From the NCBI GenBank assembly GCA_963718525.1, contig OY970355.1:128001-192000 (forward strand): a DNA stretch of 64,000 nucleotides, read 5' to 3'. Positions 18,858 through 48,342 of this stretch are shown in pieces. The position numbers and the translations under genes are program-made. This DNA comes from Candidatus Dormiibacterota bacterium. GTDB taxonomy: Bacteria; Chloroflexota; Dormibacteria; Aeolococcales; Aeolococcaceae. Position 1 is the stretch's first letter; each line of letters opens with the position of its first letter. The notes below the pieces were generated by a model. The model made no database searches, was not told the origin of the DNA, and saw nothing but the letters and a program-made list of their open reading frames with translations.

Positions 18858-18869
18858 TATCACTGACCG

Positions 18870-19859
18870 ATGGTGGCCGAAACGATGACCGGTGTCCGTG
18901 AAGAGCAACCATCCGGCAAGCCCCCGGCACTGATTGTCGACCACCTCACCAAACGCTTCGGCGACCGCATCGCGTTCGACGACGTTTCGTTCTCTGTGGC
19001 ACAGGGCGAGGTGTTCGGGTTCCTGGGACCCAACGGGGCCGGGAAGACGACCACGGTTCGCACCCTGGGGACGCTGATCGCACCAACGTCGGGCTCGGCG
19101 AGTGTCGCCGGCATTCCGTTGACCTCGGACAACGGGCCGGAGATCCGCCAGCGCATTGCGATCATGCCGGAAAACCCGGGCCTGTACCGGCGTCTCACGG
19201 TGATGGAGAACCTCCAACTCTTTGCCGGTCTCTACGAGCAGCACAACGCGGCTGCTCGGATCGGCGAGGCACTCGAAGCGGTCAACCTGACAGCGCGTGC
19301 ACACGATCTGTGCGGAAGTCTTTCCAAGGGACTGCTGCAACGGGTTGGACTGGCTCGGGCGTTGCTCAACGACCCTGCGGTCATGTTTCTCGACGAGCCA
19401 ACGTCCGGGTTGGATCCCGTCGCGACGCGTGAGGTGAACGACCTCATCAACGGACTCCGCCAGCGCGGGGTCACGGTGTTCCTCACCACCCACCGCCTCG
19501 AGGAGGCGGAGCGGCTGTGTGACCGCGTCGCGATCCTCAACACCACGCTCCGCCTGGTGGGGCGGCCCGACGAGCTCCGTGAGCGGCTTTTCAGCCGCTC
19601 GCTGGTTGTCGAGACGTTACATCCGCTCGGCGCGCCAGATGACGTCTTCAACAGCACCGACGGCGTCGAGAGCTGGCGAACCGATGGACCGAGCAGTTAT
19701 GTGCTGAGTGTCACCGATCCAAGGAAGATCGCCCCGCAGGTGGCCCGAGCACTCGTTGCCGCGGGTGCCGACGTGGTCTCGATCAGCGAGTCGCGTCACT
19801 CCCTCGAGGATGTCTACCTGCAGTTGATCGACGACGACCCGGAGGCATCACCTCGATGA
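18870..19859 (+). CDS. ABC transporter ATP-binding protein
   Basis: GPNGAGKTT, LSKG, FLDEPTSGLDP, TTH. Confidence 0.95.
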   Translation: MVAETMTGVREEQPSGKPPALIVDHLTKRFGDRIAFDDVSFSVAQGEVFGFLGPNGAGKTTTVRTLGTLIAPTSGSASVAGIPLTSDNGPEIRQRIAIMPENPGLYRRLTVMENLQLFAGLYEQHNAAARIGEALEAVNLTARAHDLCGSLSKGLLQRVGLARALLNDPAVMFLDEPTSGLDPVATREVNDLINGLRQRGVTVFLTTHRLEEAERLCDRVAILNTTLRLVGRPDELRERLFSRSLVVETLHPLGAPDDVFNSTDGVESWRTDGPSSYVLSVTDPRKIAPQVARALVAAGADVVSISESRHSLEDVYLQLIDDDPEASPR

Positions 19860-20677
19860 AGTTCAGCTTCAGACGTCTGGGGGCGGTGCTGCGCAAAGAG
19901 CTCCGAGAATACCGGCGCAGCCCCTTCATCCTCGTGACCATGGCGGTGCTCCCGCTCGTGTTTCTTATCGAACCCTTGTTGACCATCTTTCGCATCGGCC
20001 CGTTGGTCGCGGCTAGTACGGTGGATAAGGCCGTCAGCGCCACGTTTCTCGTACTGCTGATTGCGCCTGCTTTGCTGCCCGCTGTCATTGCCTCGTACTC
20101 CGTGGTCGGCGAGCGCGAGCAAGGCACCCTCGAACCCCTGTTGACCACCCCGCTGCGTCGCGAGGAGCTGCTGCTGGGCAAGGCGATCGGCGTGGTTGTT
20201 CCCGCGGTCGGTATCGCCTATGTGCTCTTCGCGATCATCCAAATCTGCGCCCAACTCTTCGCGAGCAATCCGGAAGTGGTGTCAGCTCTGGGACAAGGCC
20301 CACATATCGCGGCGGAGATTCTCTTCGCACCGCTGCTGGCGGGTTGGTCGATCTGGGTGGGCATCGGCATCTCGACGCGAGCGAGCGACGTTCGTGTCGC
20401 GCAGCAGTTGGGGACGTTGTCGAGCCTGCCGCCGCTCGCGGTCGTGGCCTTGGTGTCCTTCAACGTCTTCACTCCGAGCGTCACGCTCGCGGTGGTGTTC
20501 GCGCTTGTCCTCTTCGCGGCCGACGTCATTCTGTTTCGCTTCGTCGCGGCCCTGTTCGATCGCGAGCGGCTCATCACCGGCGCGTCGGCGCATCGAGGGC
20601 CGAGCGGCGGCGGTCAGGGCCCACCCTCCGGTGCGGTTCGACGGATACCACGCATGACAGGTAGCGGCGATGGGTGA
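19856..20677 (+). CDS. ABC-2 type permease
   Basis: GEREQGTLEPLLTTP; TM helices; overlaps the ATPase gene. Confidence 0.9.
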   Translation: MKFSFRRLGAVLRKELREYRRSPFILVTMAVLPLVFLIEPLLTIFRIGPLVAASTVDKAVSATFLVLLIAPALLPAVIASYSVVGEREQGTLEPLLTTPLRREELLLGKAIGVVVPAVGIAYVLFAIIQICAQLFASNPEVVSALGQGPHIAAEILFAPLLAGWSIWVGIGISTRASDVRVAQQLGTLSSLPPLAVVALVSFNVFTPSVTLAVVFALVLFAADVILFRFVAALFDRERLITGASAHRGPSGGGQGPPSGAVRRIPRMTGSGDG

Positions 20678-21198
20678 CGGCACCGGTGATCCTGCCCAAG
20701 ATCCGCGATCCGCGGTTCATCACAGTGCGTCGCGGCGGGATCCTCCAAGATGACGATCATCGCCTTCTCGCGATATGGGCGGCTGACTGCGCGGAGCATG
20801 TGCTGAAGCACTTCGAGCAGGCACGACCGAAGGACGATCGTCCGCGGCGGGCGATCGTCCTCGGGCGTGCCTGGGCGCGGGGTGAGATCACGTGGCAAGA
20901 GGCCCGCACCGCGGCTGGTCACGCAAACGCCGCGGCCAGGAAGCTGAGTGGTACAGCACGGTATGCCGCGTACGCTGCCGGCCAGGCCGCTGCGGTGGGC
21001 CATGTCGCAGCCCACGAACTCGGAGCCGCGGCGTACGCGATCAGGGCGGCGCGAGCGGCCGCGACTGACGACGACCGCGTCGAGGCAGGCCGTTTGGAGT
21101 GCCAGTGGCAGCGCGCTCGACTCCCCGACGAGATCCGAGAACTTGTGCTTGACGACCAGCGGCTGCGCAACGAGTTGTGCTGGTTTGCCTTCGACTGA
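20674..21198 (+). CDS. Imm5-like putative immunity protein
   Basis: WAADCAEHVL..DDRPR.AI..AAGQAAAVGHV.AH. Confidence 0.8.
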   Translation: MTAPVILPKIRDPRFITVRRGGILQDDDHRLLAIWAADCAEHVLKHFEQARPKDDRPRRAIVLGRAWARGEITWQEARTAAGHANAAARKLSGTARYAAYAAGQAAAVGHVAAHELGAAAYAIRAARAAATDDDRVEAGRLECQWQRARLPDEIRELVLDDQRLRNELCWFAFD

Positions 21199-21478
21199 CA
21201 CGGCGTTGGCGGGGCGCGTGTCGCGGGTTTGTGGAGAGAATGCTCGCCTGGGCAGGCGCTTTCTTGTTAGAGGCTCTCGATTCGGGTCGGACCGCATCAC
21301 CGATGCGGACGCCCGCCAGGATCGCGACCGTCTGCAGGTCCGACGGCTAGCGCTCCCAGCACCTCCTGACCTGGGTACAGTAGCGACCACTCGGAGCCTC
21401 GGGCATTGCCAAACCATCCCGCGACAGGGCAGATGACATCAGGCGGAGCCACACCATGGAGCACCATTTCGTATCACC

Positions 21479-22174
21479 GTGTTGATGGCGCTACTGGACG
21501 ACGCAGCATATCGCGCCCGTCGCGGACGATACTCAGACGCTGTAATTCAAGCGCAGGGCGCACGGATAGCTAAGGCCAACTCCCCCAAACTCAAAAAACT
21601 GTTGCCGGCGGATATCCTTTTCTTCCACACAAGGCCGTCTGTCGTAAGTTGGATGGTCATGTATGTCACGGGCAGCATCTGGAGCCATACGGCTATGTAT
21701 GTCGGCGATGAACTCGTGACCGATGCGACCTCTATCGGCGTAAGGAGGCATCCTCTGGCAGATTATTTCAACGGAGAGTCGTCTTTCTCTGCGCGTCGGC
21801 CTCCCTTCTCTGAAGGAGGCGCAGAACGTGCAGTGGATGCCATGAACTCAAAGATCGGCAAGCCCTACGGGTGGACCATGGTGCTACTGATCGGATGGCA
21901 ATCCATTGTAGGTGCGCGGCGAGAATTCGATGGGCGGCATGCGGTCGACGTGCTCTTCTCGCTTGCTGTCTTATCCGTCCCGGCGGCCTTATGGCGACCC
22001 TGGGCTTCCATCACCGGGCTCATCGCAACGTTGTATCTAGTTACGCTTGCCCGAAACCGCGCTGCCTGGCTCGCCGTTCGGAAGGAAACGTCATCCGATT
22101 CCAACTCCCGGCCCGTTCCCGTTGTATTGCCTCGGTATACCCGGCGGTGGAAGCAGCGTGCTCAGCGTGGATAG
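21479..22174 (+). CDS. permuted papain-like (YiiX/YebB NlpC/P60) domain membrane protein
   Basis: ADILFF, WSHTAMYVG, IGKPY; TM C-terminus; visibly lower GC. Confidence 0.7.
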   Translation: MLMALLDDAAYRARRGRYSDAVIQAQGARIAKANSPKLKKLLPADILFFHTRPSVVSWMVMYVTGSIWSHTAMYVGDELVTDATSIGVRRHPLADYFNGESSFSARRPPFSEGGAERAVDAMNSKIGKPYGWTMVLLIGWQSIVGARREFDGRHAVDVLFSLAVLSVPAALWRPWASITGLIATLYLVTLARNRAAWLAVRKETSSDSNSRPVPVVLPRYTRRWKQRAQRG

Positions 22175-22326
22175 CCTCGGTGAGGTCAAAGTACATTTCC
22201 GGATACTTGGCCTGGTGCGAGGGGCTCGTCTTCCAGCGGTTCACGAGCGTCGTAAACGTGTCCCACCGAAACCGGTGGTAGGGATGGCCGTGTAGCGTCG
22301 GATAGCAGTCGGATACTCCGCCCGTC

Positions 22327-22719: not shown

Positions 22720-23046
22720 GTCTTTTCTGCACCTCGTGAAGGCAGCGAATGCCTCGTCTTTTGGCTGGCAACTCTCTGGGAGTAGAAGCTATCTGGCAGC
22801 ACAAGGCCCCGTCGGTATGGAGCCGACGCATCGCCAACCTCCCCCTTTTGACCTGCCGTCACGGACAGGTCCCCGCTCCGGACGGTAGCAGTTCAGCTCA
22901 GTGCTTTGCGCAGCCGTCCCTGCCACCTATGTGCCGGTCGGGGGCACCTTTCTCGGGTGACATTAACGAACCCTGCCATGAGAGAGAGTTGGCTCACTCG
23001 AGGTTCGGGGCATTCGCTGTTCGGGCAGAATGACTGACCTGCAGAT

Positions 23047-23565: not shown

Positions 23566-23730
23566 TCTTTAGCCCGCCTCCGCCGACCTTCGCCAGCGGT
23601 TGCTCTGGCGACATTGGCGGACCCTGGCCTGCGCGAGGTTCATGTTTCTGGTTGCCGTGCTCGTGGGAAACGCGGCCACAGGTCGTCAGTTCCCGAGGCA
23701 TGCTCGGACCGTTGTGGGCCGTCCTGATCG

Positions 23731-24177
23731 ATGGCTGCGAGACTACGCTCCGTGTCCTCCACATGTCGGCCCTACCGGCTCAGCGACGCCGAAGCCCTCC
23801 TGTCGCTCTGGGCTCTTTGCGGGCTCACGCGCCCGTGGAATGATCCGTATCGGGACATCGAGCGCAAGATCGGGGTCGACCCCAACGGCCTTCTAGTGCT
23901 TGAGGATGGCAGTCGATTGGTCGGCGCCGTCATGGTCGGTTATGACGGCCATCGCGGATGGATCAACTACCTGGCGGTACATCCGGATCATCGCCGGTGT
24001 GGGTTGGGCAGTGTCCTTATGGCGGCCGCCGAGCAGCGGCTGGCAGAGCTCGGCTGCCCGAAAGTGAATCTGCAGGTTCGTGCCTCTAACCAGGAAGCGG
24101 TGGCCTTCTATCGCCGCATTGGCTACAGCGTGGATGACGTAGTGAGTATGGGACGACGTCTCGAGAACGACAGCTGA
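23731..24177 (+). CDS. GNAT acetyltransferase (YpeA-like)
   Basis: RPWNDP..DI.RK, GYDGHRGWINYL, GCPKVNLQVR. Confidence 0.9.
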   Translation: MAARLRSVSSTCRPYRLSDAEALLSLWALCGLTRPWNDPYRDIERKIGVDPNGLLVLEDGSRLVGAVMVGYDGHRGWINYLAVHPDHRRCGLGSVLMAAAEQRLAELGCPKVNLQVRASNQEAVAFYRRIGYSVDDVVSMGRRLENDS

Positions 24178-24289
24178 GACGGCGCACCGGCTCAAGGGAC
24201 ATTCGCAGACCCTGGCGTGAGGGAAAATGGTCGGCTTTCGGCTGCCGGACCCTCCTAGTGCGCGACCGTTAGGTCTGCCTCACCCTACG

Positions 24290-24526: not shown

Positions 24527-24811
24527 AACACAACGCTACACCACCGGTCGACCCGTCTCAACCCTACTGATTCGTGTGAGCCAGTCGTGCGCCGCGAAAG
24601 TGCCGCCGGAGCTGCCTGACTCAAGGTGGCTTTGCGGATATTGGCGTGAGGAGCCGCTGCCCCGTTCGGACAACTCACCGCAGCACATGTATGACCCATT
24701 AGCGCACCCCGCTCCGCTGAAGATGGCCTAACCCGCGTCGTCGACCTCCAAGCCGAACTAGCATCGACTTATGAGGTTGACCCTAACGATCAGGTCATCA
24801 ACCATCGCCAG

Positions 24812-25186: not shown

Positions 25187-25298
25187 CGCTGGGCATCGGG
25201 AATATCCATGAATAGTGGGGCGCGTCCTCGAGGTACATTCGCGGATGCTCGCATGCGCAAGAGCCTTCCGCGTTCGGTGGAAAACAACGCTCCTACGA

Positions 25299-25892: not shown

Positions 25893-26071
25893 TTGTTGCT
25901 TCCTCGACGCGACTATACGGGTGCTTTTTCGAGGAAGACGCCGAAGTGCGATGTTGGTCGGTCTTCAGACCGTTCACGTGACACCCGGCGGCTCGTGGCC
26001 AGCACGGAGCGGCTTTCCGGGTACATTTGCGGATACTCGCCTGCGACACAGTTCTCAGGTTTGAGGCTGGT

Positions 26072-26369
26072 TCAAGCGAGCAAGAGCGCGTCGAGCTGTT
26101 CGGCAACGTCCGCCTTCAGTTGATCGACATCGCTACTTATCTTGCCGCCTAAGCACAACATAAAGACAAGCGCATCAACGACGTCACCCTCTCTGTACAC
26201 GAGGAGACTCACCTCAGAATCTACCCCCTTGAGCCCGCACCACACGCTCCACCCCCCTGGGTTCTGCTCGCAGTCCTGCTTGCAGTAGCCTCGGCGTGTA
26301 CTCCGTTAGGACCTCCTGAACGGCCGTCGGTGCCGCTTCCTCAAGATCTGTCAGGACGCTGTTGTCCAT
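26072..26369 (-). pseudogene. hypothetical protein with +1 frameshift
   Basis: MDNSVLTDLEE.. continues in another frame (DSEVSLLVY..LLLA*); the extra base is probably in a C homopolymer at 26224-26257. Confidence 0.5.
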
Positions 26370-26528
26370 CACCGGATCATTGTCCCTCCCTCCCGCTATC
26401 CGCGAGCACTCTGGGAACCTTGGCGGATGCTGGCATGCGCCAAGCGGCCCTCCTCTGGCCCAGATCCGCTTCCCCTGACTGCGAATAGGTAGTGTCGCTG
26501 AACTGGGTTGGCCACTAGGATCTGCTGT

Positions 26529-26777
26529 ATGAGCCGTTCCTTCTCCAATGCGCTCTTGGTCGCGTCGGTGCCAGTGGGAATTGGAGTTGGCATTTGGACG
26601 GCCCTGCTCAGGGTCGACGTCTCGGCCCAGGTCTGCGGCCATTTCCTATGTGCTGCCTTTGGAACTCCCTTCGCGCGGTGGCAGTCGGCACTGCTAGGGG
26701 CTGTTGCAGCCGCGGTGGTGGTACTAGCCTCCATCGCCGCATCCCGTCTCGGCAAAACCTCCCTGAGTCAGCACTAG
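26529..26777 (+). CDS. small 2-TM protein with Cys-loop (family A)
   Basis: ASVPVG..GIWTA..C....C..FARWQS. Confidence 0.7.
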   Translation: MSRSFSNALLVASVPVGIGVGIWTALLRVDVSAQVCGHFLCAAFGTPFARWQSALLGAVAAAVVVLASIAASRLGKTSLSQH

Positions 26778-26930
26778 CCTGAACGAGACACTGGCGGATG
26801 CTCGCGCGGCCCAGGCTCTAAGTTGTCGATGCGGGATACGCTCTGCCGATGAGTTCCACCGAATCGGACGACAGATAGGTGGATGCTGTCCTCGCTGCAG
26901 TCATAGAGACTCGGACACAAGGAGCCACCG

Positions 26931-27326
26931 ATGACGCTGCGTAAGCTCAATCCCTCTGCACTGCCGACCCCTACCGGCTATTCACAGGTTGTCGTGGCAG
27001 CCGGCTCCCGAACGGTCTTCATCGCCGGACAGGTGGCGCTCGATCGAGACGGCGGACTTGTCGCACCCGGGGACGTCGTCGGCCAGGCTCGCCAAGCGTT
27101 CGCGAATATGCGAATTGCGATCGAGGCAGCCGGAGCGGCAATCGACGATGTGACCAAGATAACCTGGTACGTGGTCGGCTACCGGCCGGAGTGGCTTCCC
27201 GAGCTGGCGGCCGCCCGCAATGAGGTGCTCGGCGGGCATATGCCAGCGAGCACATTGGTGGGTGTAGGCGCTCTCGCCCAGGACCACTTTCTCGTTGAGG
27301 TCGAAGCGGTAGCTGTGATCGACTAG
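26931..27326 (+). CDS. RidA/YjgF family protein
   Basis: GYSQVV, VFIAGQV, PASTLVGV.AL, LVEVEAVA; AAGGAG RBS. Confidence 0.92.
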   Translation: MTLRKLNPSALPTPTGYSQVVVAAGSRTVFIAGQVALDRDGGLVAPGDVVGQARQAFANMRIAIEAAGAAIDDVTKITWYVVGYRPEWLPELAAARNEVLGGHMPASTLVGVGALAQDHFLVEVEAVAVID

Positions 27327-27637
27327 ACGAAGAGACGCTGTACTGAAGCGACGTTCGGCCGATGAGGCGCATATGGGGCCCCCGTTGTTCGGTTTGCCCC
27401 GTGCACCGATGTATCTCCCACTGGTACCGCTCCAGCGACATTGGCGGATGCTCGCGTGTCCGCCCAACTTCTGCCTGCGGAGGTGAAATGTTGCCCTGCC
27501 AGGCGCGGGTAATAGCCTGACGGCGACAGCAGCGTGCACGCGCCCGATGGGCGAAAATGCGCCCGGGTCCGAGCTACTGAACCTCCGGCGAGGCCGTCCA
27601 GTTTCACTGACGACACCGGGCTGCCCCAGTCCTAGTC

Positions 27638-28129
27638 TCAACTCGCGGTTTCGTTGGTGGCGACTGCCCGAGCGAGCTGCCCGAGATGCTCTTGCTCATG
27701 CGACGCCATGTCGCCGGCGAGTCGCAACATCGACACCTCGCCAAAGTCCGTCTGGACGGAAGACGTCCACTCGTGGTTGGAGAGTCCGAGCAGGAGACCG
27801 ACCAGTTCGCGGCGCCGCAGAGTGAAGGCTCGGACCTGATCAGCCGCCGACAGGCCAGCCCTGGCCAGCAAGTCGCCGTATGTGCGCTCGTCCAGTCCGA
27901 GATGGACACCGTCGGGGCGTATCAGCCAGTTCCAAATCCGAGACGCAACGATCAGATCACTAGCGCGGACGTGCCTGAGGACTTCCAGCGGCGACCAGTC
28001 ATCGGGAGCTGGGCGACGACCGAACTCGGCCTCACCTAAGTGGGAAAGGGCAGCTTCGAATTGCTGGGGGCTTTCCGCCAGGATGGCGATACAGCCCTCG
28101 ACCGCATGCGACTCTGGCTCAGACCTCAC
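27638..28129 (-). CDS. DinB family protein
   Basis: DWSPLEVLRHV..HEQEHLGQL. Confidence 0.8.
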   Translation of the reverse strand: MRSEPESHAVEGCIAILAESPQQFEAALSHLGEAEFGRRPAPDDWSPLEVLRHVRASDLIVASRIWNWLIRPDGVHLGLDERTYGDLLARAGLSAADQVRAFTLRRRELVGLLLGLSNHEWTSSVQTDFGEVSMLRLAGDMASHEQEHLGQLARAVATNETAS

Positions 28130-28381
28130 TCGCTGATTCTGTCTGATCTTCTGCTATCAAAGATGGAACGCCGGATACGCCGCGGCCCGAAAACGTACCC
28201 GCCTCTGGGGACATTGGTGGATGCTGGCATGGGCGAGCGACCCGGAGATTGAACTCCGCCATCGCTGCGATCTTTCGCTGCCGCCACCGGAGACGGGATC
28301 GCGGTCGCGACGCGATAGCGGGGATGCAACACTTCAAGTGGGGCCGCATGGTTACGAGCGCGGCCGAACTAAGCTGGCGGG

Positions 28382-28861
28382 ATGGCCGAAGAGCGACCAG
28401 GTCGGCTGACCGCGCTTCGACGCGGTCTTCACCGCCTAACGCGGGAGCATCCAGCGGCGTGGGCCGGGCTCGGGATCACGTGCCTTGCTGGCCTGGTGAT
28501 CGTGGCAGCCTTCCCCGGCGCCTCTTCGGGTTCAAAACGCGTCAACCCTAAGGTTTCACTCCCGCCGGGTATGGGCGCCGTAGTCGGTGGCATCGAAGCG
28601 TGCTATGACAGCGGTCCTCCACCGGGCGGCTACCCGTGGGTGGCGGGTTCGGTTGCTCTGTATGCCGCGGGGGACCGCGATTTCCTCAAGCCAATCGCAA
28701 TTGGTACCGCAGCACCCAACGCAGATTTCGTCGTGCTGGCTTCGCCTGGTGACTACGAACTCGCGGCCTACGCGGGCCTTTCCAACCCGGCGGTCTCAGT
28801 GACTGTGCGGAGCGGGAACATTACCTTCCAAGATCTTCGCTCGAATGGTGGATGCATCTGA
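28382..28861 (+). CDS. membrane-anchored beta-sandwich protein
   Basis: TM followed by GAVVGGIEAC..PGDYEL; resembles the 24812 protein. Confidence 0.6.
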   Translation: MAEERPGRLTALRRGLHRLTREHPAAWAGLGITCLAGLVIVAAFPGASSGSKRVNPKVSLPPGMGAVVGGIEACYDSGPPPGGYPWVAGSVALYAAGDRDFLKPIAIGTAAPNADFVVLASPGDYELAAYAGLSNPAVSVTVRSGNITFQDLRSNGGCI

Positions 28862-29044
28862 GTTCGTGGCTCAAGGGACATCGGCGGATGCTGGCGTGCG
28901 CTGCGATCATCGTGTTTGGCCTCGATGCTGGTTCCTAAGCGCGGCCTCGTACACGCTTCCGACTGGAATCACCGTTGCTGCTACGGATCGCGTTCAGCCC
29001 CGCGTGGTTCGCGCTGGGGACCAGGCCCGAGCTAGCATCGACCC

Positions 29045-29308
29045 ATGGGCACACTCGCGAACATTCTTCGGGTAGCGTCCGTGCCGGTGGGTGTCTTGAT
29101 TGGTCTGTGGACCGCGCACCTTACAAGCCTTCCGAGCAGCTACCGATGCCCAGTTGACGCTTTCTGCCTCCCCTTGAATTTCTATTTGAGGCCCACCTTC
29201 GCGATGTGGCAATGCGTCTTGTTCGGTGCAGGCGCTGCTGCCGTCTTGCTCCTAATGTCCTTTGCGGTGGCGCGCTTGCCGAGCGCAAGGCCGCTCACCG
29301 CGGCCTGA
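29045..29308 (+). CDS. small 2-TM protein with Cys-loop (family A)
   Basis: LRVASVPVGVLIGLWTA..C.....C..TFAMWQCVLFGAGAAA. Confidence 0.75.
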   Translation: MGTLANILRVASVPVGVLIGLWTAHLTSLPSSYRCPVDAFCLPLNFYLRPTFAMWQCVLFGAGAAAVLLLMSFAVARLPSARPLTAA

Positions 29309-29553
29309 AGGCGTTATCCGTCGCCTCGTCTCGTCCAAACAGCCCAACTCCGTCTCGTCCAGCCACCTTGAGTGCGTTCATCTCTGCGGCATAGAACGGC
29401 TGGCCGACGTTGGCTCAAGATACATTCGCGGACCCTGGCTTGCGGTAGAGGGCTGTGCCTCGGGCGCATGGGCACGCCCCCCGCGTCGACCCACGCGGAG
29501 CCCAGCCAGTCAGCGTGGACCCTGGCGGCACGGCGATCGGCACAATCGGGATC

Positions 29554-30219
29554 ATGTCAACACCGGTAGCGTTCTCATGGAGTGCAGGGAAAGACTCAGC
29601 CTTCGGTCTTCGGACGCTGCTCCGTGATCCCAGGTACGAGGTCCGGGCGCTGATGACGACCATCACGGAGGGCTACGACCGGGTGAGCATATCGGGCGTG
29701 CGCGAGGAGCTTCTTGACCGGCAGGCCTCAGCGCTCCAGTTGCCATTGATCAAGGTGCGGATTCCCCCCGCTTGCACGACGGAGGAATACGAAGAGCGCT
29801 TGGCGACGGCGCTGGCCGGCGAAGAGCTCAGTGGCGTTGAGCACGTTGCTTTCGGGGACCTCTTTCTGGAGGACGTTCGGGCGCATCGGGAGGAGCGCCT
29901 GAGCCTGGCTGGCAAGCACGGTCTTTTCCCGCTCTGGGGCCGGGATACAAACGCGCTGGCTCGAGACATGATAGCCAACGGATTTCGCGCCTTCGTCGTA
30001 TGCGTCGATCCTGAGGCCCTCGATGCGTCCTTCGCGGGGAGACCGTTCGACGGCACGTTCCTACGCGACCTGCCCAAGGGCGTCGACCCTTGCGGCGAGA
30101 ACGGCGAGTTTCACACCTTCGTATGGGCGGCGCCGATGTATCAGAACCCGATTCCGTGCCGTACCGGTGAGGTGGTCATCCGCGACGGATTTGTGTTCTG
30201 CGACGTTATTCCACATTGA
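29554..30219 (+). CDS. PP-loop ATPase, diphthamide-synthase-like (Dph6/DUF71)
   Basis: SWSAGKDS, FGDLFLED, DPCGENGEFHTFV. Confidence 0.9.
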   Translation: MSTPVAFSWSAGKDSAFGLRTLLRDPRYEVRALMTTITEGYDRVSISGVREELLDRQASALQLPLIKVRIPPACTTEEYEERLATALAGEELSGVEHVAFGDLFLEDVRAHREERLSLAGKHGLFPLWGRDTNALARDMIANGFRAFVVCVDPEALDASFAGRPFDGTFLRDLPKGVDPCGENGEFHTFVWAAPMYQNPIPCRTGEVVIRDGFVFCDVIPH

Positions 30220-30466
30220 TGGGATCCGATAACAGGAGCTGCTTACCCACCACCGATGAGTGCGCCCGCAAGCGTCGTTTCGAGCCACGCAACGTATCGC
30301 GCCGTCCCCAGCCCAGCAGGACAGTCAGCAACTGATGCACCTCTGGATTGCTCACGGCCCAGACCCGTCTCAGCCGACACCGCCGATGAGGCGCCCTCCC
30401 GGAGCTGGCGTTGCTGCGGAGAGCCTCAAACGCTGTCGGGGCAGGCTGCCTCCGTCGGCGACGTTC

Positions 30467-30976
30467 TCATGACGAGCGTGGGACCCGTGGAGCTGACCGC
30501 ATCAGCCCCGCACCCAGCAGAACGGCCGGAATGAGCCCGACTGCGGCCGGAATGACCATCTCGGCTGCCGATGGATCGACAGCCGGGTAAGTCGCGAAGA
30601 GGAGTCGGACAAGGCCCGCGCCGTAACCGGCGAGGCACACGCCTACGGCGATCAACGCCGGCAGCCTTCTGCCCCTCTTCGCAAACACGCCCAGCACGAG
30701 TAGGACGGCGGGACCCGCAACGAGGGCCGTGAGCAGCACATCAATTCCATCGGGGATCCGCTGATGGCGCGCAACCGCTAGGCCGACACCGTAGAGATCA
30801 GCTGCGATAGCAACGATGAGGAGCACGACCGCAGCCGCAACGAGACTGGCGCCGCCGGCGGCCATGAGACGACGATCGGTTCCGACACCCTGCTGCGGGG
30901 AATACCACCCGTACGCCGCGGTGGCACCTACATACATAGCGAGAAGGAGGGTGAGGATGATCACGTCCCCCTCCAC
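30467..30976 (-). CDS. membrane protein
   Basis: About 5 TM segments. Confidence 0.6.
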   Translation of the reverse strand: MEGDVIILTLLLAMYVGATAAYGWYSPQQGVGTDRRLMAAGGASLVAAAVVLLIVAIAADLYGVGLAVARHQRIPDGIDVLLTALVAGPAVLLVLGVFAKRGRRLPALIAVGVCLAGYGAGLVRLLFATYPAVDPSAAEMVIPAAVGLIPAVLLGAGLMRSAPRVPRSS

Positions 30977-31242
30977 CTACGTATGGCATACGCCGCCGAT
31001 GCTTGCATCCGACTGCTCCGCGCATTGCGTGTCGCGCCGAGATGCAACGCACCGTCCACCGTGAAGGCTACGCCGCTTCGGAGAACGTGCAGCAGGGTCA
31101 CCACTGTCATCTTGCTGACAGTTGAGTGGTGGTTCAGCTCCCCCGTCTCCCGTCGAAGAATGGTCGGCGCGACCTTACAGTCGACAGCTGGCATCGTACA
31201 GACGTTCACTATCACGACGAACCGCCTTGTGGCTAGCATCTG

Positions 31243-31638
31243 GTGAGGCACATCCTTAGTCCGTTGACGAAGGGGATCATCCTCGTCCCGTTTGCAGGCT
31301 TCTTCCTGTGCGGCTGCGGAACTGGCTTCACACCGGTCACCTGCACCAATCAATATGGCGTGACGCGAACCTGGTCGTCGTTACCGTCCGGCATCTCCGG
31401 TGGGCTCTTTGGCGCATCGCAGGCGTCCATTCAGGGGTCAATCGACAAGAGCGCTGGACCGCCGCCGGTGAACATCAGATATCCCGTGCTAAGCGCCATC
31501 GCGGAGGGGGTCGATCCGGTCGATGCAGCCCGTATGTTCGGACTAATTACCATCGCGGACCCCGGCGTTCCGACCCCTGCTCAAATCGCCAAAGCCGAGG
31601 ATCCTGCCACCTACGGCTGGACCTGCCACGCCGCGTAG
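31243..31638 (+). CDS. putative lipoprotein
   Basis: LCGC lipobox. Confidence 0.6.
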   Translation: MRHILSPLTKGIILVPFAGFFLCGCGTGFTPVTCTNQYGVTRTWSSLPSGISGGLFGASQASIQGSIDKSAGPPPVNIRYPVLSAIAEGVDPVDAARMFGLITIADPGVPTPAQIAKAEDPATYGWTCHAA

Positions 31639-31811
31639 CGGAGACCGACCTACTCCTGTTCGACCCCGACCCTTCCGTCCAGGAAACCTCTGCTCGAGAG
31701 TGGTGCGCGTGGGAAGACACCCATGTCTCGCTCGCTCCGGGTCACCAGCCTAGGCGGTGGGAGGGGACCCGGATGGGCCCCCGTCCCGACCGCCAGTCAC
31801 GCCGACGGCGC

Positions 31812-33614
31812 TTAGACCTTGCCGATCAGCGTGTTCCAGTCGCCACTGACGCTGTATTGGGAAGCGACCCAGATGTGGTTCTGGTCGTGTCCGAAGCCGT
31901 CGTAGGACGCAGCCTCAAAGTCGCCCCACCTCGAGTCAAAGGTCGCTGACGGACCCTTGATCAGGAACTTGGGGGTGCCGAGCGCTCCGAGCGGGGAGCC
32001 AGCGGACTGCTGCGCGACCATGATGCTCGGATTGAGTGTGCCGCTCATGGTGTCGAAGACCATGACCAGGCGGCCCTTCTTGTCCTGCATCATCGCGCCA
32101 AACGACGCGGCCTGGTCACCGGCGAAGGCCAGGTATCCGTGCTGGTATAGGTTCGGAAACGGAATGGAAGAGAAGTGGGTGACCTGGATCTGTCCCCAGA
32201 GGATGCCGGCGACGAACGAGGAGCCGCCTGCGCCGCCGTTGTTCACCACCGTGTCCAGTGAGAAGGAGATCAGAGGTTGACCTCCCCCGACGCTGTAGAC
32301 CGGCGTGCCCGTGATTCGAGTGTCGATCGTTTCGACGCACTGCACGCAGCCGGGCTCGTCAGCATTGGGTGGAGACGCGTACGTCGGGCTGCCGACGGGC
32401 GGATCTGCCAGGTTCCCGCCGAGCGTCTGGTTGCTCGGGTCGTACGCCCACACGACGAACCCATGGCACGCCGTGAAGAAGCAGTCATCCCCGAACGGGT
32501 CCCCGAAGATGTTGAACGCGTTGACCAGGTACTGGACACCCGGGTCGTTCGCCGGAGTCGTCTCGGTCTCCACTGGCTGGACCGTGTCGACGGGAACGCT
32601 GCCGACCGTGAGGTCTGTGAAGGCGACAGACGTGACCGGGTTGCCGGCCTCCATGGTCGCCTTGTCAGCAAACTGGACTTCAGCGAAGTCGTAGTTGCCG
32701 GTTGTGAAGTCGAACATGTTGCCGGTGAACGAGATGGTCTTCCCGCTGAAACCGAACTGCGTGTAGTCCGCGCCGGCGTTGACCGTCCCGCCCAGAGTCA
32801 TGTCGAAGTGGTACACGTGCTGAACGCCGGTCGCAGGGTTGACGACCGCGACCCAGTAGATGGAAGTGTTCGGGCAGGATGAGCCCACGCCGAACGCGGC
32901 TGCCTCAACTTGGAGCGTCGCCGTCCAGAAGAGGCCGGTGTTGGGGTCGTAAAAGGCGCGCGGGTCACTCATGAACGGCCCAAGCGGGTCGCAATTACCA
33001 GGAAGGGGCGGAACCCCGTACCAGGTCAGGTCGTTGATCGGTCCGATCCACGGCGTGCCGTTCGTCTTGAAGATCTCGTAGGAGGTGTTGACTCCCTGCA
33101 GGACGTACTTCGGCGATGCGGCAAGTGCCATATCCGGCGGCTGGCAGCCACCGAAGTACGGGCAGATGGACGCAGAGTCGGCCATACCCTGGAATTTGAC
33201 GCCGCTGATCGTGCCTGCGCCGGCGCTCGATGCGCCGGCAAGGAGCTGCGTAGCGACCGGGGCGCGGAGTCCGGTCCTTGCCCAACTCTTGCTCGCCAGC
33301 GATCCTCGAACGGCCAGCGTTCGGGGCGCGGCTCTGAGCGCCGCCCCGGCCTTGACAGTGGGCAGATTGAAGATGTTTCTCGTCAGGGCCGGAACGGCGT
33401 AGTTGCCAGCGTGATGAGCCGTGGCCACCGCAGCCGAACCGCGTGCCGCAGCGGCGCCGCCGGCGCTGCTGAACATCGCGACGAGTACGGCGAGCGCGGC
33501 GCCGAGTGCCGGGACGACGCGCGCGCCTCTCGGCCGCGACGCAGCGCCCTGTCGATGACGGGCACCGCCTGCGGAAAGCGCAGGCAGCGTCGACCTATGC
33601 TTGAAGACCCCCAT
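31812..33614 (-). CDS. large secreted protein
   Basis: Signal-like segment; PPDMALA, SDPRAFYD, DY.QFG and SRWGDF motifs. Confidence 0.8.
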   Translation of the reverse strand: MGVFKHRSTLPALSAGGARHRQGAASRPRGARVVPALGAALAVLVAMFSSAGGAAAARGSAAVATAHHAGNYAVPALTRNIFNLPTVKAGAALRAAPRTLAVRGSLASKSWARTGLRAPVATQLLAGASSAGAGTISGVKFQGMADSASICPYFGGCQPPDMALAASPKYVLQGVNTSYEIFKTNGTPWIGPINDLTWYGVPPLPGNCDPLGPFMSDPRAFYDPNTGLFWTATLQVEAAAFGVGSSCPNTSIYWVAVVNPATGVQHVYHFDMTLGGTVNAGADYTQFGFSGKTISFTGNMFDFTTGNYDFAEVQFADKATMEAGNPVTSVAFTDLTVGSVPVDTVQPVETETTPANDPGVQYLVNAFNIFGDPFGDDCFFTACHGFVVWAYDPSNQTLGGNLADPPVGSPTYASPPNADEPGCVQCVETIDTRITGTPVYSVGGGQPLISFSLDTVVNNGGAGGSSFVAGILWGQIQVTHFSSIPFPNLYQHGYLAFAGDQAASFGAMMQDKKGRLVMVFDTMSGTLNPSIMVAQQSAGSPLGALGTPKFLIKGPSATFDSRWGDFEAASYDGFGHDQNHIWVASQYSVSGDWNTLIGKV

Positions 33615-33779
33615 GGCCCACCTCCTTGGTCGGGCAAAAAGCGCCCGTTTGACCAGATCGATACGGGTGACCCGCACGATCGGTTCGGAGTCATAGTCGT
33701 TCGAGTGGGCCTCTGTCAAGCATTCGGACGAGGTCTGTCCCCCATGGATTGAGCGCGGCGCGTGTCATTCTCGTGGAGA

Positions 33780-34291
33780 TGAGTCGAGCGATGGCGCGAC
33801 CCGCCACTCGAGCGGTTGATGACGCGTTCTTCGAACGCTTCTTCGCCGACACCTGCCAGATGGCGGTTGGGGCGGTCGCGGTGACCACTGGGGACGTCGG
33901 CGCCGCTGAAGACGCCGTCCAGGAGGCGTACCTTCGAGCCCATCGCCGCTGGGCGAGAGTCTCGACACTGGATCGCCCCGACCTTTGGATCGTCAGGATC
34001 GCCACGCGGATTGCGGTCTCCAACTGGCGGCGCCACCGGCGCGAGACTCACCTCAGTAGCGAGTTGCAAGCCGAGGTCGCCGACAGCATCACCCGGATCT
34101 GGACCGAGTGGGGGCTCGAGGCGCTCAGCCCCAAGCAGCGCCGAATGGTGATCCTCCACCACATGCATGGACTTCCCGTCGCCGACGTGGCGAGAGCTGC
34201 GGGGTCCTCGACAGAGACGGTGCGGACTCACCTGAAGCGTGCTCGCGTGCGCCTTCGCACCCGATTCTCCGATGAGGATCGTTATGACTGA
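33780..34291 (+). CDS. ECF sigma factor
   Basis: AEDAVQEAYLRA..RW, LSPKQR, TVRTHLKRAR. Confidence 0.9.
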
Positions 34292-34979
34292 CTTGAAGCG
34301 CGATCTGGAAGAGGTCGGGAGGGCCGTCTGGCCGGCCCCCGAACAGGTTCGGCGTCGCATGATCGACCGCGGCTCCAGGCGTTGGCGTTCTCGCAGGACC
34401 TTCGGGGCAATCCTGGCCACCGCTGCGATTGCAGCAGTGATCGGGGCCGTTTCTGCCCCAGCGATCATTGCTGTGGAGCACGATCTGACGTCGTTATCCA
34501 CGTCGGCGCACCCTGCGCCTAGTGTCGGCTCCGCCGCGCAAGGATCGAGTGGCCGCTTCACCGGTAGACAGGGTGCGACAGGTCCATCGACACCCACGGC
34601 ATCGGCAGGTCACAATGCGCCGCCGCCGGCGGTCACTGTCTCGCCGAGTCCCACCGTCCACTCGCCCTCGAGCGGCGTGTCACTCGTCCTCACGCAGCAA
34701 AGCAGGGGAACCTACTTTGTGACTCTGGGCTCCACGATCACCGTCACCTTGACCGGCGGCACGAGGAGTGACCCCTGGATGATGCCCACGAGCCGGCCCG
34801 ACCAGATCGTCCATTTCTCGCGCGGTGACCGGTCGAGCGGTGGTGATGCCACAGCGACGTTCGTCGCCACCGCCTTCGGCCAGGCGACGATCCAGGCGTC
34901 CCTCTCCCGCGAGTGCCCACCCTTGTGCGGCGGAGGACCCACGTACATTTGGCACGTCCAGGTCAGCGTCGTCGCGTGA
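34284..34979 (+). CDS. putative anti-sigma factor: TM plus chagasin/I42-like domain
   Basis: Overlaps the sigma gene; TM, S/P linker, beta-rich C-terminus. Confidence 0.65.
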   Translation: MTDLKRDLEEVGRAVWPAPEQVRRRMIDRGSRRWRSRRTFGAILATAAIAAVIGAVSAPAIIAVEHDLTSLSTSAHPAPSVGSAAQGSSGRFTGRQGATGPSTPTASAGHNAPPPAVTVSPSPTVHSPSSGVSLVLTQQSRGTYFVTLGSTITVTLTGGTRSDPWMMPTSRPDQIVHFSRGDRSSGGDATATFVATAFGQATIQASLSRECPPLCGGGPTYIWHVQVSVVA

Positions 34980-35099
34980 CCCCGGCCGTCTCGTGCCCAG
35001 TGCGTCGAGGGGCTCCTGAGGAGGCGACAGGACGGCAGTCTCGAGGACGTGACTTATCACCGGACTCGAGTTGGCACCTAGACACGGAGGTTAGTTCGA

Positions 35100-35381
35100 A
35101 TGGCCGACACCGACTTTCTTACTGCTGGTCAGGCGGCTGCGCTCATTGGCATTTCGCGATCCACTGTCCGCCGGGCTGTTGCTCAGGGACACCTGCTCGC
35201 GTGGCATACGCCTGGAAAGCATCTCCGTGTCGTCCGCGAAACGTGCCTCGAGTTTGCGCGCGACTTGGGGCGCGTTGACCTCGTGGGCCGCCCGAACGGT
35301 AACCCGTCGCCGGAGTGGCTTCCCGAGCTGGCGGCCGCCCGCAACGAGGTGCTCGGCGGGCATATCCCAGCGAGCACATAG
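35100..35381 (+). CDS. excisionase-type (HTH_17) DNA-binding protein fused to a RidA fragment
   Basis: LTAGQAAALIGISRSTVRR..TPGKHLR, then PEWLPELAAARNEVLGGH. Confidence 0.75.
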   Translation: MADTDFLTAGQAAALIGISRSTVRRAVAQGHLLAWHTPGKHLRVVRETCLEFARDLGRVDLVGRPNGNPSPEWLPELAAARNEVLGGHIPAST

Positions 35382-35582
35382 GTCGGTGTAGGCGCTCTCG
35401 CCCAGGACCACTTTCTCGTTGAGGTCGAAGCGGTAGCTGTCATCGACTAGACGAAGAGACCCTGTACTGAAGCGACGTTCGGCCGATGAGGCGCATATTG
35501 GGCACCCGCTGTTCGGCTTGCCCCGTGCACCGATGCACCTCCCACTGGTACCGCTCGAACGACATTGGCGGATGCTCGCGTG
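35309..35582 (+). repeat. near-identical copy of 27185-27458 (ridA 3' half, spacer and boundary site)
   Basis: 274-bp colinear match ending at the motif TG; TTG changed to TAG at 35379. Confidence 0.95.
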
Positions 35583-36786: not shown

Positions 36787-37683
36787 GCCCATCCCCCTCA
36801 CTGCTTGAAAGAGGGTTCAGCCTATCAGGTTGCTGGATCGTTTCCTCCCATTGGCATGTCCTCCCCAAGAAGCTCGTGTTGGTAAAGCCGGGTGTCTTAG
36901 TGTCTGGGGTGCTGCTTCGAGCTATGAGTACATTCGCGGATGCTGGCGTGCGTCAGTGTCATTCGGTTCCGCGAACCGGCCCAGCCCCGCGCGGCCTATC
37001 GGAGGCCCGGGCGGCGCCGGTCCAACCGCAGATCGACGTTCTCGATCGGCTCGAGTGGCACATCCGCCGCCGCCGAGGCGAGCAGCGACGGGGGTGCAGG
37101 CGCTAGCGGGGACGGTCGTCCGGAGCCCTCGGCCCGGGAATCCGGGCCTATGTCCCAGGACCTGCCGAAGGATGGAAACTGGCGCGATCTAGCGCGAGCC
37201 ATCCGTAGGATCCGGTGAGCGCCGCGCGATATGCTGTGAACAGCTCCTCGCCGAAGGCGGCGCACAACCGTGTCAGGGTGCGAGAGGAGCGCATAACCCG
37301 TATATGGCATTCGCCAATTCTGACTCTTCTTAGAGTTTGCCGCTGTGTTGCGCTGCAGCCATCGAGGATCACTTCGGGATGCTGGCCTGGGCAGCGCTCC
37401 TCTCCGCAGTCGGTTGCGTTTCTTGCGGAATCAGCCGAAACCAGAGATACGATCCTGCGAGACCCGGACGCTCCCTTCGTCGGCGAGCTGACGTGTAAGA
37501 GTCGACACGTACCGGGGTGCCCGTCAAGGGATATTTGCGGACCCTGGCCTGGCCGATTTTCGCTTCCTCGGCCGGTCGCCGATGCGGCCAGTTGGTCACT
37601 CGATTGAGCGGGCCGAACGTGCCACGGCACGGCCTCGACCAAAGCCGCTCAAGCGGCATGGGGCAGCTGGCTGGTAAGGCCTC

Positions 37684-37944
37684 TCAGCCTGCCTTGTGTG
37701 ATCTCGCCGACGGCAGCCGCGTGATCGCGAAGGACAGTAGGAGCAAGAAGGCTGCGGCACCTGCACCAAACAAGGCGCATTGCCAGATCGCAAAGGTGGC
37801 CCTCTCCGAGAGTTTGTCGAGGCAGATCTCTCCCCCAAGGGAGCATTGGGTCGGGTAGGTCACGAGCTGCGCGGTCCACAGACCAATCGCGACCCCGACC
37901 GGCGCCGACGCCACCCGAAGGACAAGCGCGAGCAGGCGCCTCAT
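37684..37944 (-). CDS. small 2-TM protein with Cys-loop (family A)
   Basis: LRVASAPVGVAIGLWTA..C......C..TFAIWQCALFGAGAAA. Confidence 0.75.
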   Translation of the reverse strand: MRRLLALVLRVASAPVGVAIGLWTAQLVTYPTQCSLGGEICLDKLSERATFAIWQCALFGAGAAAFLLLLSFAITRLPSARSHKAG

Positions 37945-38186
37945 GCAGTAATGCTATCGCCGCGGCTCGTCTGCTGAGACCCCGGGGGGGAGTAACCCTG
38001 TGTTTGGGGTTTGCGTCCTCACGGTTTAGTGAGGCTGCGCAGCGCTCAGGGTACATTCACGGATGCTCGCCTGCGCGAAGGGCGCTTCGCTTCGACTAGG
38101 CTGACAGCCGAGCTAGAAGACTGGAACGAGGCGCAGTCCATGTCGACACCGTCGCTGCGTCACGTTGAAGCGCCACGTCCGCCGTA

Positions 38187-38738: not shown

Positions 38739-38958
38739 CAGCGATTCTTCCGTGGGGGATGTCTGGTCGTTACGGAAGCGACTAAACCTGACCTGGGGCG
38801 TCGTTGCCTCGATGACTTCGGCCGTCGCTACGAGACATTTACGGATGCTGGCCCGAGCGAGCAGGTTGCCTCCAGGCCGACAGCGGCGGTTCCGCGAGAC
38901 AGCAGCGTGCACGCGCCACACGCGAGAGGGTGAGTCGTTCTCGCGGCGAGGGCCTGCG

Positions 38959-39489: not shown

Positions 39490-39692
39490 GATGTCACGAC
39501 ATTAGGGATGTCGACCGTTTTCGCCTACGACGCGGCGGCCGGCCGCGCACACTTCCGCGCGGGGGCACGCCCATGGGTGACGCGGCAGGGGTCGAGCTTC
39601 CCGGACCGTCAAGAGGCATTGGTGGACCCTGGCCGGGACAAACATCCTGGCGTCGGCAGAGGTAGGGTTCGCCAACTGTAGACTTGGCGTGA

Positions 39693-40298
39693 GTGCATGA
39701 CGACCCTTACGCCACAGGCGTATGCGCCTACTGGCACCTATCCACTCCACCACCAGAGCTGACCGGGGCCCTCTCCGATGGCTGGCTCACGCCACCTGGT
39801 CGGGCGCTCGATATCGGGTGTGGGCTCGGCGTCGAGGCTGCAACATTAAGTGAGGCTGGCTTCCGTGCTGTTGGGATGGATCTGTCATCCGTAGCGCTCA
39901 CACGCGCATCTGCCGCACATCCTGAGGTGTTGTTCGTGGAGGCGGATGTGCGATCGCTTCCCTTCGCGGACAGTCACTTCGCCGTGCTAATTGACCGTGG
40001 CTGCTTTCACTATCTGGAGACGGCAGATCGATCCAGGTACGCGAGCGAAGCCTTTCGGGTTATACGTCCCGGTGGACGCTTCCTGTTGAGGGCATGCCTT
40101 CGAGCGGCAGGTGTCCGCAATGACATCGGAATGGAGACGCTGTTGAGCGTCTTCGCCGCCTGGGACGTCATCGCGGCACGTGAAGCGGACGTACCGAGCG
40201 ATACCCGAACGATGAGGGCGCTGGTGATCCGTCTGCAGCGCCCAGCATCCATAAACACGGCGCATCAGGCCGGGCAGGGAGTCCTCCAGAGACCTTGA
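39693..40298 (+). CDS. class I SAM-dependent methyltransferase
   Basis: ALDIGCGLG, DRGCFH, IRPGG. Confidence 0.9.
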   Translation: MHDDPYATGVCAYWHLSTPPPELTGALSDGWLTPPGRALDIGCGLGVEAATLSEAGFRAVGMDLSSVALTRASAAHPEVLFVEADVRSLPFADSHFAVLIDRGCFHYLETADRSRYASEAFRVIRPGGRFLLRACLRAAGVRNDIGMETLLSVFAAWDVIAAREADVPSDTRTMRALVIRLQRPASINTAHQAGQGVLQRP

Positions 40299-40431
40299 CG
40301 GAGGCTCGCGTGCGCGCCCTGCACCCCCCCGGGGAGCGCGAGCAGCGCAAGGGTGTAATCCTCTCTCGCCAATCAAACTGAACGTCTCCGGCATGTGGCG
40401 TTGTGCCTGATGGCTGGTGAGAGCGCAGGGC

Positions 40432-48329: not shown

Positions 48330-48342
48330 AGTGCCTGTCCTC

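Follow-up and report, generated by a model that had tools for sequence, protein, structure and literature searches.

An array of small gene cassettes in a Candidatus Dormiibacterota genome, with a 274-nt repeat that marks the cassette boundary at a one-sided 28-nt site

The stretch of DNA analysed here (hereafter, the window) comprises 64,000 nt of contig OY970355.1 from a Candidatus Dormiibacterota bacterium (assembly GCA_963718525.1). Coordinates are positions in this window, and all features lie on the + strand unless stated otherwise. Between 6318 and 40312 the window holds a cassette array, delineated with nhmmer and a position weight matrix (PWM), in which 31 direct copies of a 28-nt site (consensus TCWRGGKACATTnGCGGAYSCTSGCSTG) and two degenerate ones alternate with short stretches of cargo. 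The 30-column PWM, used at a threshold of at least 8 bits, finds 31 sites on the + strand and 0 on the - strand, with none outside 6577-40312, and the 33 matches of an nhmmer motif search also fall, every one of them, on the + strand. Most cassettes are 0.4-0.9 kb long and carry one small gene or no clear gene; the cargo recognized by Pfam comprises GNATs, a glyoxalase, DinB, a mycothiol-S-transferase, HAD, a methyltransferase, RidA, Imm5, ECF sigma factors and an ABC transporter. We consider it likely that this is a mobile array of about 31 cassettes, in which single cassettes are exchanged by site-specific recombination that joins DNA right after the terminal TG of the site, and that the enzyme is probably a tyrosine recombinase acting in trans.

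The window has a sole long direct repeat, made up of 27185-27458 (copy 1) and 35309-35582 (copy 2), which align without gaps and are identical at 260 of 274 positions (94.9%, blastn E 2e-120). A sequence-only reading of this DNA had described the two segments as near-identical and as composed of the 3' part of ridA, a spacer and a site, and both statements are borne out. Copy 1 consists of the 3' 142 nt of a RidA/L-PSP family gene (26931-27326; Pfam Ribonuc_L-PSP, 1.2e-23), followed by a 104-nt spacer and by the 28-nt site 27431-27458 (39.3 bits). In copy 1 numbering, the mismatches fall at 27221, 27242, 27256, 27260, 27317, 27337, 27375, 27380, 27385, 27393, 27412, 27414, 27433 and 27435, and the site that closes copy 2 (35555-35582) is identical to that of copy 1 over its last 22 nt. 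To the right, similarity ceases directly after ...GATGCTCGCGTG, the terminal sequence shared by both copies being ...GACATTGGCGGATGCTCGCGTG. Past the TG, copy 1 continues with TCCG and copy 2 with GACA, and 3 of the next 15 positions match, as expected from the earlier claim that identity ends right after the terminal TG. To the left, the repeat is limited at 27185/35309, and the preceding 30 bases of the two copies are unrelated. A chance origin for a repeat of this length is impossible, and a 5% divergence together with unique flanks on all four sides argues against a collapsed or duplicated contig end. We read the two segments as the 3' ends of a single ridA cassette present in two copies or alleles, which would explain why identity ends exactly at the TG. 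The repeat is a valid internal marker of the cassette boundary, and the cross-genome data presented below carry most of the weight.

The complete ridA cassette spans 650 nt (26809-27458), from the base after a weak site with terminal CG (26781-26808; 20.0 bits) to the TG of site 27431-27458. Copy 2 is a 5'-truncated remnant of such a cassette with its site intact: it contains just the last 274 nt, and on the left it begins within ridA (35308/35309), where there is no site. An excisionase-type helix-turn-helix (HTH) open reading frame (ORF; 35100-35381; Pfam HTH_17 5.7e-8, NCBIfam 'excise' 9.5e-10) crosses this junction in frame and runs into the ridA remnant, where it stops at a TAG (35379-35381) that stands in place of a TTG in copy 1 (27255-27257) and arises from the difference at 27256. 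The left edge of copy 2 is thus an illegitimate junction in ridA, and the fusion to the excisionase-like ORF was probably produced by a later deletion; copy 2 would have lost its 5' 376 nt and the preceding site by ordinary deletion, which would have joined the ORF to the middle of ridA. That the same cassette entered the array twice, as the sequence-only reading had it, is not shown by a copy that holds only the last 274 of 650 nt. The 5% difference between copies makes it possible that two alleles were taken up separately, and one of them may have been truncated afterwards. Copy 2 also closes a 6.1-kb 'cassette' with no internal site (29443-35582), which contains a diphthamide-synthase-like gene, a gene for a 635-aa secreted protein, an ECF sigma factor gene and the HTH_17 ORF, and which we read as several cassettes fused through the loss of internal sites.

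The genome scan used a pattern matching 11 of the 29 window sites known at the time, covered one genome per species in 185,579 species, and yielded at least 146 loci, for which flanks of 2 kb (80 loci) or 300 nt (the rest) were available, with array ends rarely within view. Eight stretches of the window array recur in other metagenome-assembled genomes (MAGs) at 81-98% identity, and in each case homology stops at sites. The GNAT cassette 23632-24219, whose closing site is 24192-24219, is found whole and 95% identical in CAWHLW010000003.1, and the DNA past both its ends is unrelated. Similarly, cassette 6331-6577 is 89.6% identical to locus L079, with homology ceasing at the TG of site 6550-6577, and the glyoxalase cassette that follows site 22186-22214 is common to five loci of four other assemblies. 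In one genome pair a cassette is 94.7% identical (locus L011), versus 80.4% for the core MMPL/HlyIII region (locus L016).

These comparisons were extended to 281 unique sites (30 from the window, 221 from Dormibacterota and 30 from elsewhere, among the matches listed), giving 37,675 evaluated pairs, all with enough flank. With the site numbered -28 to -1, upstream (U) pairs were defined by at least 75% identity in -95..-36 and at most 45% in +13..+72, downstream (D) pairs by the reverse, and two-sided pairs by at least 75% identity on each side. There are 19 U pairs from 17 families and 18 D pairs from 11 families, 15 of each being between different assemblies, and none of the 37,675 pairs is homologous on both sides. 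Other shared cassettes therefore do lose homology at the same TG, a check that the sequence-only reading had proposed, and its placement of the crossover at the 3' end of the motif agrees with all these pairs; its definition of the unit as cargo plus site agrees with D homology beginning at +1. We infer from these data that cassettes move singly, each as cargo together with its site. Pairs drawn from one assembly account for 7 of the 37 one-sided pairs, so that cassette duplication inside a genome is not peculiar to this window.

The pair data also bear on the possibility that the motif is not mobile at all, being instead REP-like, regulatory or involved in termination, with the 274-nt repeat a segmental duplication or an assembly artefact that ends on the motif by chance. 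Such an explanation would dispense with an enzyme, none having been found, and it accommodates the illegitimate left edge of copy 2. Nonetheless, a random duplication would have a probability well below 1% of ending on the final base of the motif, and this is also where a further 35 site pairs from other genomes break. The motif lacks a palindrome and shows a strand bias of 31 to 0, and sites confined to one strand while genes run in both orientations are ill-suited to a promoter or a terminator. Homology past the motif is seen in just two pairs, which run on at 55-65% and involve orthologous genes of unrelated taxa (Vampirovibrionales and Steroidobacteraceae); these are chance motif matches and illustrate what ordinary synteny looks like. 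A non-mobile repeat is thus largely refuted by the pair data already, and there is hardly any likelihood left for it. A sigma-54 or other reverse-strand promoter had been considered as well, and was dropped because the spacing is one off and genes occur in both orientations.

Within the site, the switch in identity is located between -3 and +1 by the 19 U and 18 D pairs. In U pairs identity drops to 6 of 19 at +1. In D pairs it is 15 of 18 at that position and then 0.78-1.0 through +26, with one dip (12 of 18) at +27, while at the variable positions of the site it amounts to 11 of 18 (-3), 10 of 18 (-6), 8 of 18 (-9) and 4 of 18 (-16), which is random level (0.35-0.54 expected). Over the opening six bases of the cassette, D pairs mismatch at 15 of 108 positions, versus 29 of 432 further in. 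On the upstream side, U pairs mismatch at 50 of 570 positions in -60..-31 (8.8%) and at 28 of 380 in -30..-11 (7.4%), and this figure rises to 19 of 76 (25%; random, about 45%) at -10, -9, -6 and -3. One U pair shows an en-bloc swap of CC for TG at -10/-9 although its upstream 60 nt are 100% identical. An informative case is the site at CAWBSL010000002.1:485543, whose two adjoining cassettes each have a relative in PMOL01000007.1, the relatives lying about 12 kb from one another; the site agrees with the upstream relative at -29, -16, -10 and -9 and with the downstream one at -3. The notion of a sharp break at the TG holds to within a few bases, with the qualification that the last 10 nt or so are only partly linked to the upstream cassette, and we read -10..-1 as a zone of strand exchange or conversion.

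In the mechanism that we favour, each cassette would be made up of its cargo, as a rule a single small gene pointing either way, and of a 28-nt site after it; cassettes would be cut out and inserted singly by site-specific recombination with the join directly 3' of the terminal TG, so that a site moves together with the cargo on its upstream side. The enzyme would be a tyrosine recombinase supplied in trans, not encoded beside the array, and would recognize the site as duplex DNA; its final 8-10 nt would form the strand-exchange (overlap) zone, and the weakly conserved nGCnR that opens the next cassette would represent a degenerate second arm. The site would then resemble the simple attI-type site of integrons and not a folded attC. 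A tyrosine recombinase is preferred because this 8-10-nt zone is partly exchanged. Its main rival is an HUH-type nick-and-join enzyme, which would nick after the TG, displace a strand up to the next co-oriented site and join there, and it owes this position to the fact that conservation lies wholly 5' of the break. That almost nothing is conserved on the 3' side suits an HUH enzyme and is awkward for a dimeric recombinase working on duplex DNA; all sites lie on one strand, both ends of the cassettes are exact, and the multi-gene 'cassettes' 16469-22214 and 29443-35582, with degenerate internal sites, resemble read-through at weak terminators. The last bases before the break may also resemble the nick sites of one relaxase family. 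On the other hand, no HUH, Y1, Y2, Rep or relaxase domain was detected by Pfam in 287 ORFs of the window or in 199 ORFs of other loci, although such an enzyme may be encoded elsewhere in the genome; no hairpin lies beside the cut, and with an HUH enzyme the entire site should remain joined to the upstream cassette, from which -10..-1 is in fact partly unlinked. Such an enzyme seems unlikely to us.

The anatomy of the site was analysed over 251 sites, in which the conserved block covers exactly -28..-1 and is followed, past the TG, merely by a weak nGCnR. Information content is 1-2.4 bits at most positions of the block and at most 0.9 bit after +1, so the site is one-sided. One possible reading divides it into a first arm (ACATTnGCGGA), a spacer of 8 nt (YSCTSGCS) and a second, degenerate arm (TGnGCnR...). 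Across the break the consensus reads GCSTG/nGCnR (the slash marking the break), which does not match the R' core of integrons (GTTRRRY). To look for folding, the reverse complement of the site was aligned locally with the 110-230 nt that flank it on each side. For 29 window sites the upstream alignments average 14.8 versus 16.1 in controls, and for 239 sites the means are 12.63 and 12.88 versus control means of 12.38 and 12.69; minimum-energy DNA folds of the 29 sites reveal no common stem. An attC-like hairpin was accordingly rejected, neither flank alignments nor folds giving any signal, and at gathering thresholds Rfam yields a tRNA-Gly as its sole match in the whole window. Cassettes have a median length of 616 nt (interquartile range 441-803, n=151). 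Among the 149 cassettes of at most 2.5 kb, with ORF choice and orientation set by a heuristic based on GC content at third codon positions (GC3), cargo runs in the same direction as the site in 55, opposite to it in 58 and is unclear in 36; the Pfam-supported single-gene cassettes of the window divide into 5 same and 4 opposite. Hence, cargo shows no orientation preference. In the array itself, one small gene occurs in two cassettes (29066-29281 and 37711-37920; 87 and 86 aa, 83-86% DNA identity) in opposite orientations relative to the site, with homology confined to the ORF, which indicates that a site can be attached to either end of a gene.

These results speak to whether the array might be an ordinary integron or a cluster of attC sites lacking an integron integrase (CALIN), in which the motif would be the 3' part of a taxon-specific attC and IntI would be encoded elsewhere. 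A co-oriented array, a median cassette of 616 nt and similar cargo are what sedentary chromosomal integrons present; in these, too, the break falls where the site ends on its 3' side, and a few bases of weak conservation pass to the next cassette. Yet no complementary partner occurs within about 110-230 nt on either side and there is no common stem, the break at TG/nGC is not the attC R' core, no IntI is encoded in the window, whose tyrosine recombinase reaches 22 bits against a cut-off of 265, and the orientation count of 55 to 58 is not that of an integron. We therefore hold an integron to be a very unlikely explanation. More generally, the classical integron, the Xer/dif system and the non-mobile repeat each conflict with the data in one or more of the defining features tested.

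The only recombinase encoded in the 64 kb (287 ORFs) is an Xer-like tyrosine recombinase at 47403-48557 on the - strand (Pfam Phage_integrase, 5.5e-20). Its best NCBIfam model, archaeal XerA / 'site-specific tyrosine recombinase/integron integrase', gives 86 bits against a cut-off of 220; two integron-integrase models give 22 and 15.7 bits (cut-offs 265 and 435), and the XerC and XerD models 53.0 and 52.5 bits (cut-offs 335 and 330). The host's own Xer genes lie outside the window. Being the sole recombinase in the window, of the simple Xer/IntI-like type and 7 kb from the end of the array, this protein could be the cassette recombinase, the array then being a tandem accretion of miniature integrative elements. 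Against this, it adjoins tRNA-Gly(CCC), at a distance of 200 nt, which is the usual setting of unrelated island integrases; the PWM detects no site or half-site between 40312 and 64000, and the gene lies at the distal end of the array and not at its start; it has no relative at the 146 listed loci; and its scores fall far under the family cut-offs. No copies of at least 14 nt of the tRNA-Gly region were found elsewhere in the window. The protein looks like an ordinary island integrase, and a role for it in the array is, in our judgement, quite improbable.

Other enzymes were sought with NCBIfam on 22 ORFs and with lenient Pfam settings on 12 unexplained ORFs of the window. The 199 locus ORFs include one split large serine recombinase, two IS110-family transposases and one IstB, and no recombinase family recurs with arrays across the window and these ORFs. 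The serine recombinase, at locus L078, is divided between two ORFs (2270-2779 and 2931-3614, +; Resolvase 8e-30, weak Zn_ribbon_recom) and begins 250 nt downstream of a lone site ending at 2021. A crossover by a serine recombinase at the centre of the candidate dyad (axis between -7 and -6) was rejected, since -6 and -3 show no linkage to the downstream cassette. The two IS110-family genes (DEDD_Tnp_IS110 plus Transposase_20; L044:818-2074 and L060:2894-3460, both on the - strand) are cassette-like and co-oriented with sites, the former filling a 1753-nt unit between sites ending at 2512 and 759, the latter abutting a half site ending at 2855.

Several observations weigh against a trans-acting tyrosine recombinase that moves single cassettes. 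With regard to the enzyme, Pfam finds no recombinase or transposase in the 220 ORFs of window positions 1-46000 and no tyrosine recombinase among the 199 ORFs of Dormibacterota loci with 2-kb flanks, and the one candidate in the window lies 7 kb past the last site, close to tRNA-Gly(CCC) (47128-47202, - strand), and has no tblastn relative at the 146 listed loci. With regard to the site, a tyrosine recombinase normally requires two inverted arms, and the candidate dyad, with its axis between -7 and -6, ranks only 2nd among 72 axes at about 1.6 standard deviations over the mean, which is suggestive but does not establish it. Scrambling within an overlap should link the zone partly to the downstream cassette, and D pairs, which mismatch at -10, -9, -6 and -3 in 27 of 72 cases versus about 45% at random, show little of this. 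The U and D pairs are moreover few and in part not independent, all comparison genomes are MAGs, and the sites outside the window, among the matches listed, were found with a pattern derived from the window itself. Finally, the history of copy 2, a full cassette presumably truncated afterwards, is one that we infer.

Turning to the distribution of the array type, at least 113 of the 146 listed loci come from records of Candidatus Dormibacterota, Dormibacteraeota or Dormibacteria (67 contigs, 34 assemblies). Sites in Dormibacterota are co-oriented inside each cluster, with arrays of 18 (PMOL01000007.1), 11 (CAVWEG010000003.1) and 10 (CAVWRW010000015.1) sites, and some assemblies hold several arrays. 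Most of the 33 loci elsewhere, among the matches listed, fit only the part of the motif that the pattern forces; four contigs, labelled Chloroflexi, Acidiferrales, Saccharimonadales and Actinomycetes, carry 6 sites in which the 7 bases left of the pattern agree with the motif as well. The array type hence appears specific to Candidatus Dormibacterota. The MMPL/HlyIII region lies at 59132-60451 in the window, 19 kb from the array, and about 1-2 kb from sites in L016 and L001; since this distance differs across Dormibacterota MAGs, arrays occupy differing chromosomal positions. Neither the PLSDB plasmids nor the INPHARED phages contain a blastn match to 26000-29500. In the full texts searched, we found no description of cassette arrays or of this motif in Dormibacterota; a study of mobile elements in permafrost soil that applied IntegronFinder to the same kind of MAGs does not mention Dormibacterota in the part of the article available (PMC13323075).

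The remaining sites of the window array illustrate its regularity and its exceptions. The array opens with a degenerate site that lacks the central motif (6318-6341; nhmmer E 0.14), followed by sites at 6550-6577 (31.5 bits), 7157-7184 (37.5 bits), 7960-7987 (39.0 bits), 8662-8689 (42.6 bits; the window member of a U pair with JBIOIZ010000094.1), 9098-9125 (36.4 bits), 10602-10629 (terminal CG, 23.4 bits), 11193-11220 (44.7 bits), 12052-12079 (31.7 bits), 14281-14308 (39.5 bits) and 16441-16468 (27.7 bits). A second degenerate site without the middle of the motif can be read from the sequence at about 17996-18020. Further on lie a PWM site with a 1-nt insertion (22186-22214), a weak site (22953-22980, 16.2 bits), a site that forms a D pair with CAWHLW010000003.1 (23604-23631, 37.8 bits) and, past the GNAT cassette, sites at 24621-24648 (28.4 bits), 25228-25255 (40.7 bits), 26016-26043 (37.3 bits) and 26410-26437 (35.4 bits). 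Beyond the weak left border of the ridA cassette and the site that closes it, the array continues with 28204-28231 (39.0 bits), 28871-28898 (38.9 bits) and 29415-29442 (39.8 bits), and after copy 2 with 36923-36950 (34.7 bits), 37362-37389 (23.8 bits), 37524-37551 (37.6 bits), 38046-38073 (41.7 bits), 38828-38855 (terminal CG, 27.1 bits), 39609-39636 (terminal GG, 28.2 bits) and 40285-40312 (32.0 bits), which is the last. Both degenerate sites retain their two ends and miss the centre, around GCGGA, and may be inactivated sites that fuse adjacent cassettes. Two units of the array, 12247-14078 and 33749-34976, pair an ECF sigma factor gene with a larger ORF of unknown family, possibly encoding an anti-sigma factor in each case. 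Immunity-type genes of polymorphic toxin systems, with no toxin gene alongside, are a further kind of cargo (Imm5, Imm74, WapI twice and Imm26), and are located at 20674-21195 in the window and at L004:2090-2509, L008:2368-2871, L068:1534-1956 and L030:3429-4019.

Set against known systems, the array shares features with several of them. Xer/dif systems (arrays of integrative mobile elements exploiting Xer recombination at dif, and pdif modules of Acinetobacter plasmids) also employ a 28-nt block, and the array site can be written as 11-6-11; the sole recombinase of the window is Xer-like, and in both cases short sites flank modules that do not encode their own recombinase. The differences are nonetheless substantial. 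The break of the array site falls to the right of -9 and not at the central six bases: positions -10, -9, -6 and -3 are unlinked to the downstream cassette (27 of 72 mismatches in D pairs), which places the break rightward of any such centre. Sites in the window number 31 direct and 0 inverted, and genomes contain several arrays, in place of one dif or of the alternation seen in pdif modules; the arms show no clear dyad, and the window recombinase scores 53 bits on XerC/XerD, for which cut-offs are about 330.

Elements related to IS91 and ISCR and the borders of transferred DNA (T-DNA) resemble the array in that direct repeats on one strand delimit the unit and the recognition sequence lies only 5' of the cut; multi-gene units could also reflect read-through. 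They differ in that no HUH enzyme and no hairpin were found for the array, which consists of dozens of tandem units without a transposase, and in that the last 10 nt of the array site are partly exchanged. The IS1111 elements that target attC sites of integrons, and the IS110 family, provide a different parallel, with IS110-family transposase genes directly beside co-oriented sites at two loci (L044 and L060). These are restricted to 2 of about 150 cassettes, and ordinary cassettes lack conserved sequences of insertion sequence (IS) ends, so the IS110-family elements look like parasites of the site and not its recombinase. As opposed to repetitive extragenic palindromic (REP) sequences and bacterial interspersed mosaic elements (BIMEs), the array site is non-palindromic, lies on one strand (31 sites) and delimits cassettes that are shared across genomes.

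The closest likeness is to integrons and CALINs, which also form long co-oriented arrays of small, mostly single-gene cassettes with a site at the 3' end of each. As in integrons, the break lies at the 3' edge of the site, the first bases of the next cassette are weakly conserved and single cassettes are shared across genomes, and the kinds of cargo are the same: GNAT, glyoxalase, DinB, methyltransferases and immunity proteins. The array differs in having a linear 28-nt site with no inverted partner and no folded attC, different bases at the break and no IntI, attI or Pc that we could see. Most cassette genes of integrons point the same way as the site and share one promoter, whereas those of the array lie in either orientation with about the same frequency; a genome may carry several arrays as well as lone sites, and the host is Dormibacterota. 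To our knowledge, integrons are so far the sole system for storing and shuffling single genes in cassette form that is well understood, and their logic is thought to rest on a folded attC and IntI. We see about even chances that the arrays described here constitute a phylum-wide, integron-like system of gene capture, with a duplex site, cassettes indifferent to orientation, scattered sites and a dedicated recombinase in trans, invented independently a second time; its recombinase is possibly of a new kind. If so, cassette capture can be built without a folded attC, in a barely studied, uncultured soil phylum, and tools based on attC and IntI miss such systems. The arrays would also offer a direct handle on gene flow in Dormibacterota, with cassettes 81-98% identical between MAGs and a core of about 80% in one comparable pair, and a short duplex site whose break is mapped to a few bases would be a concrete substrate with which to find the recombinase.

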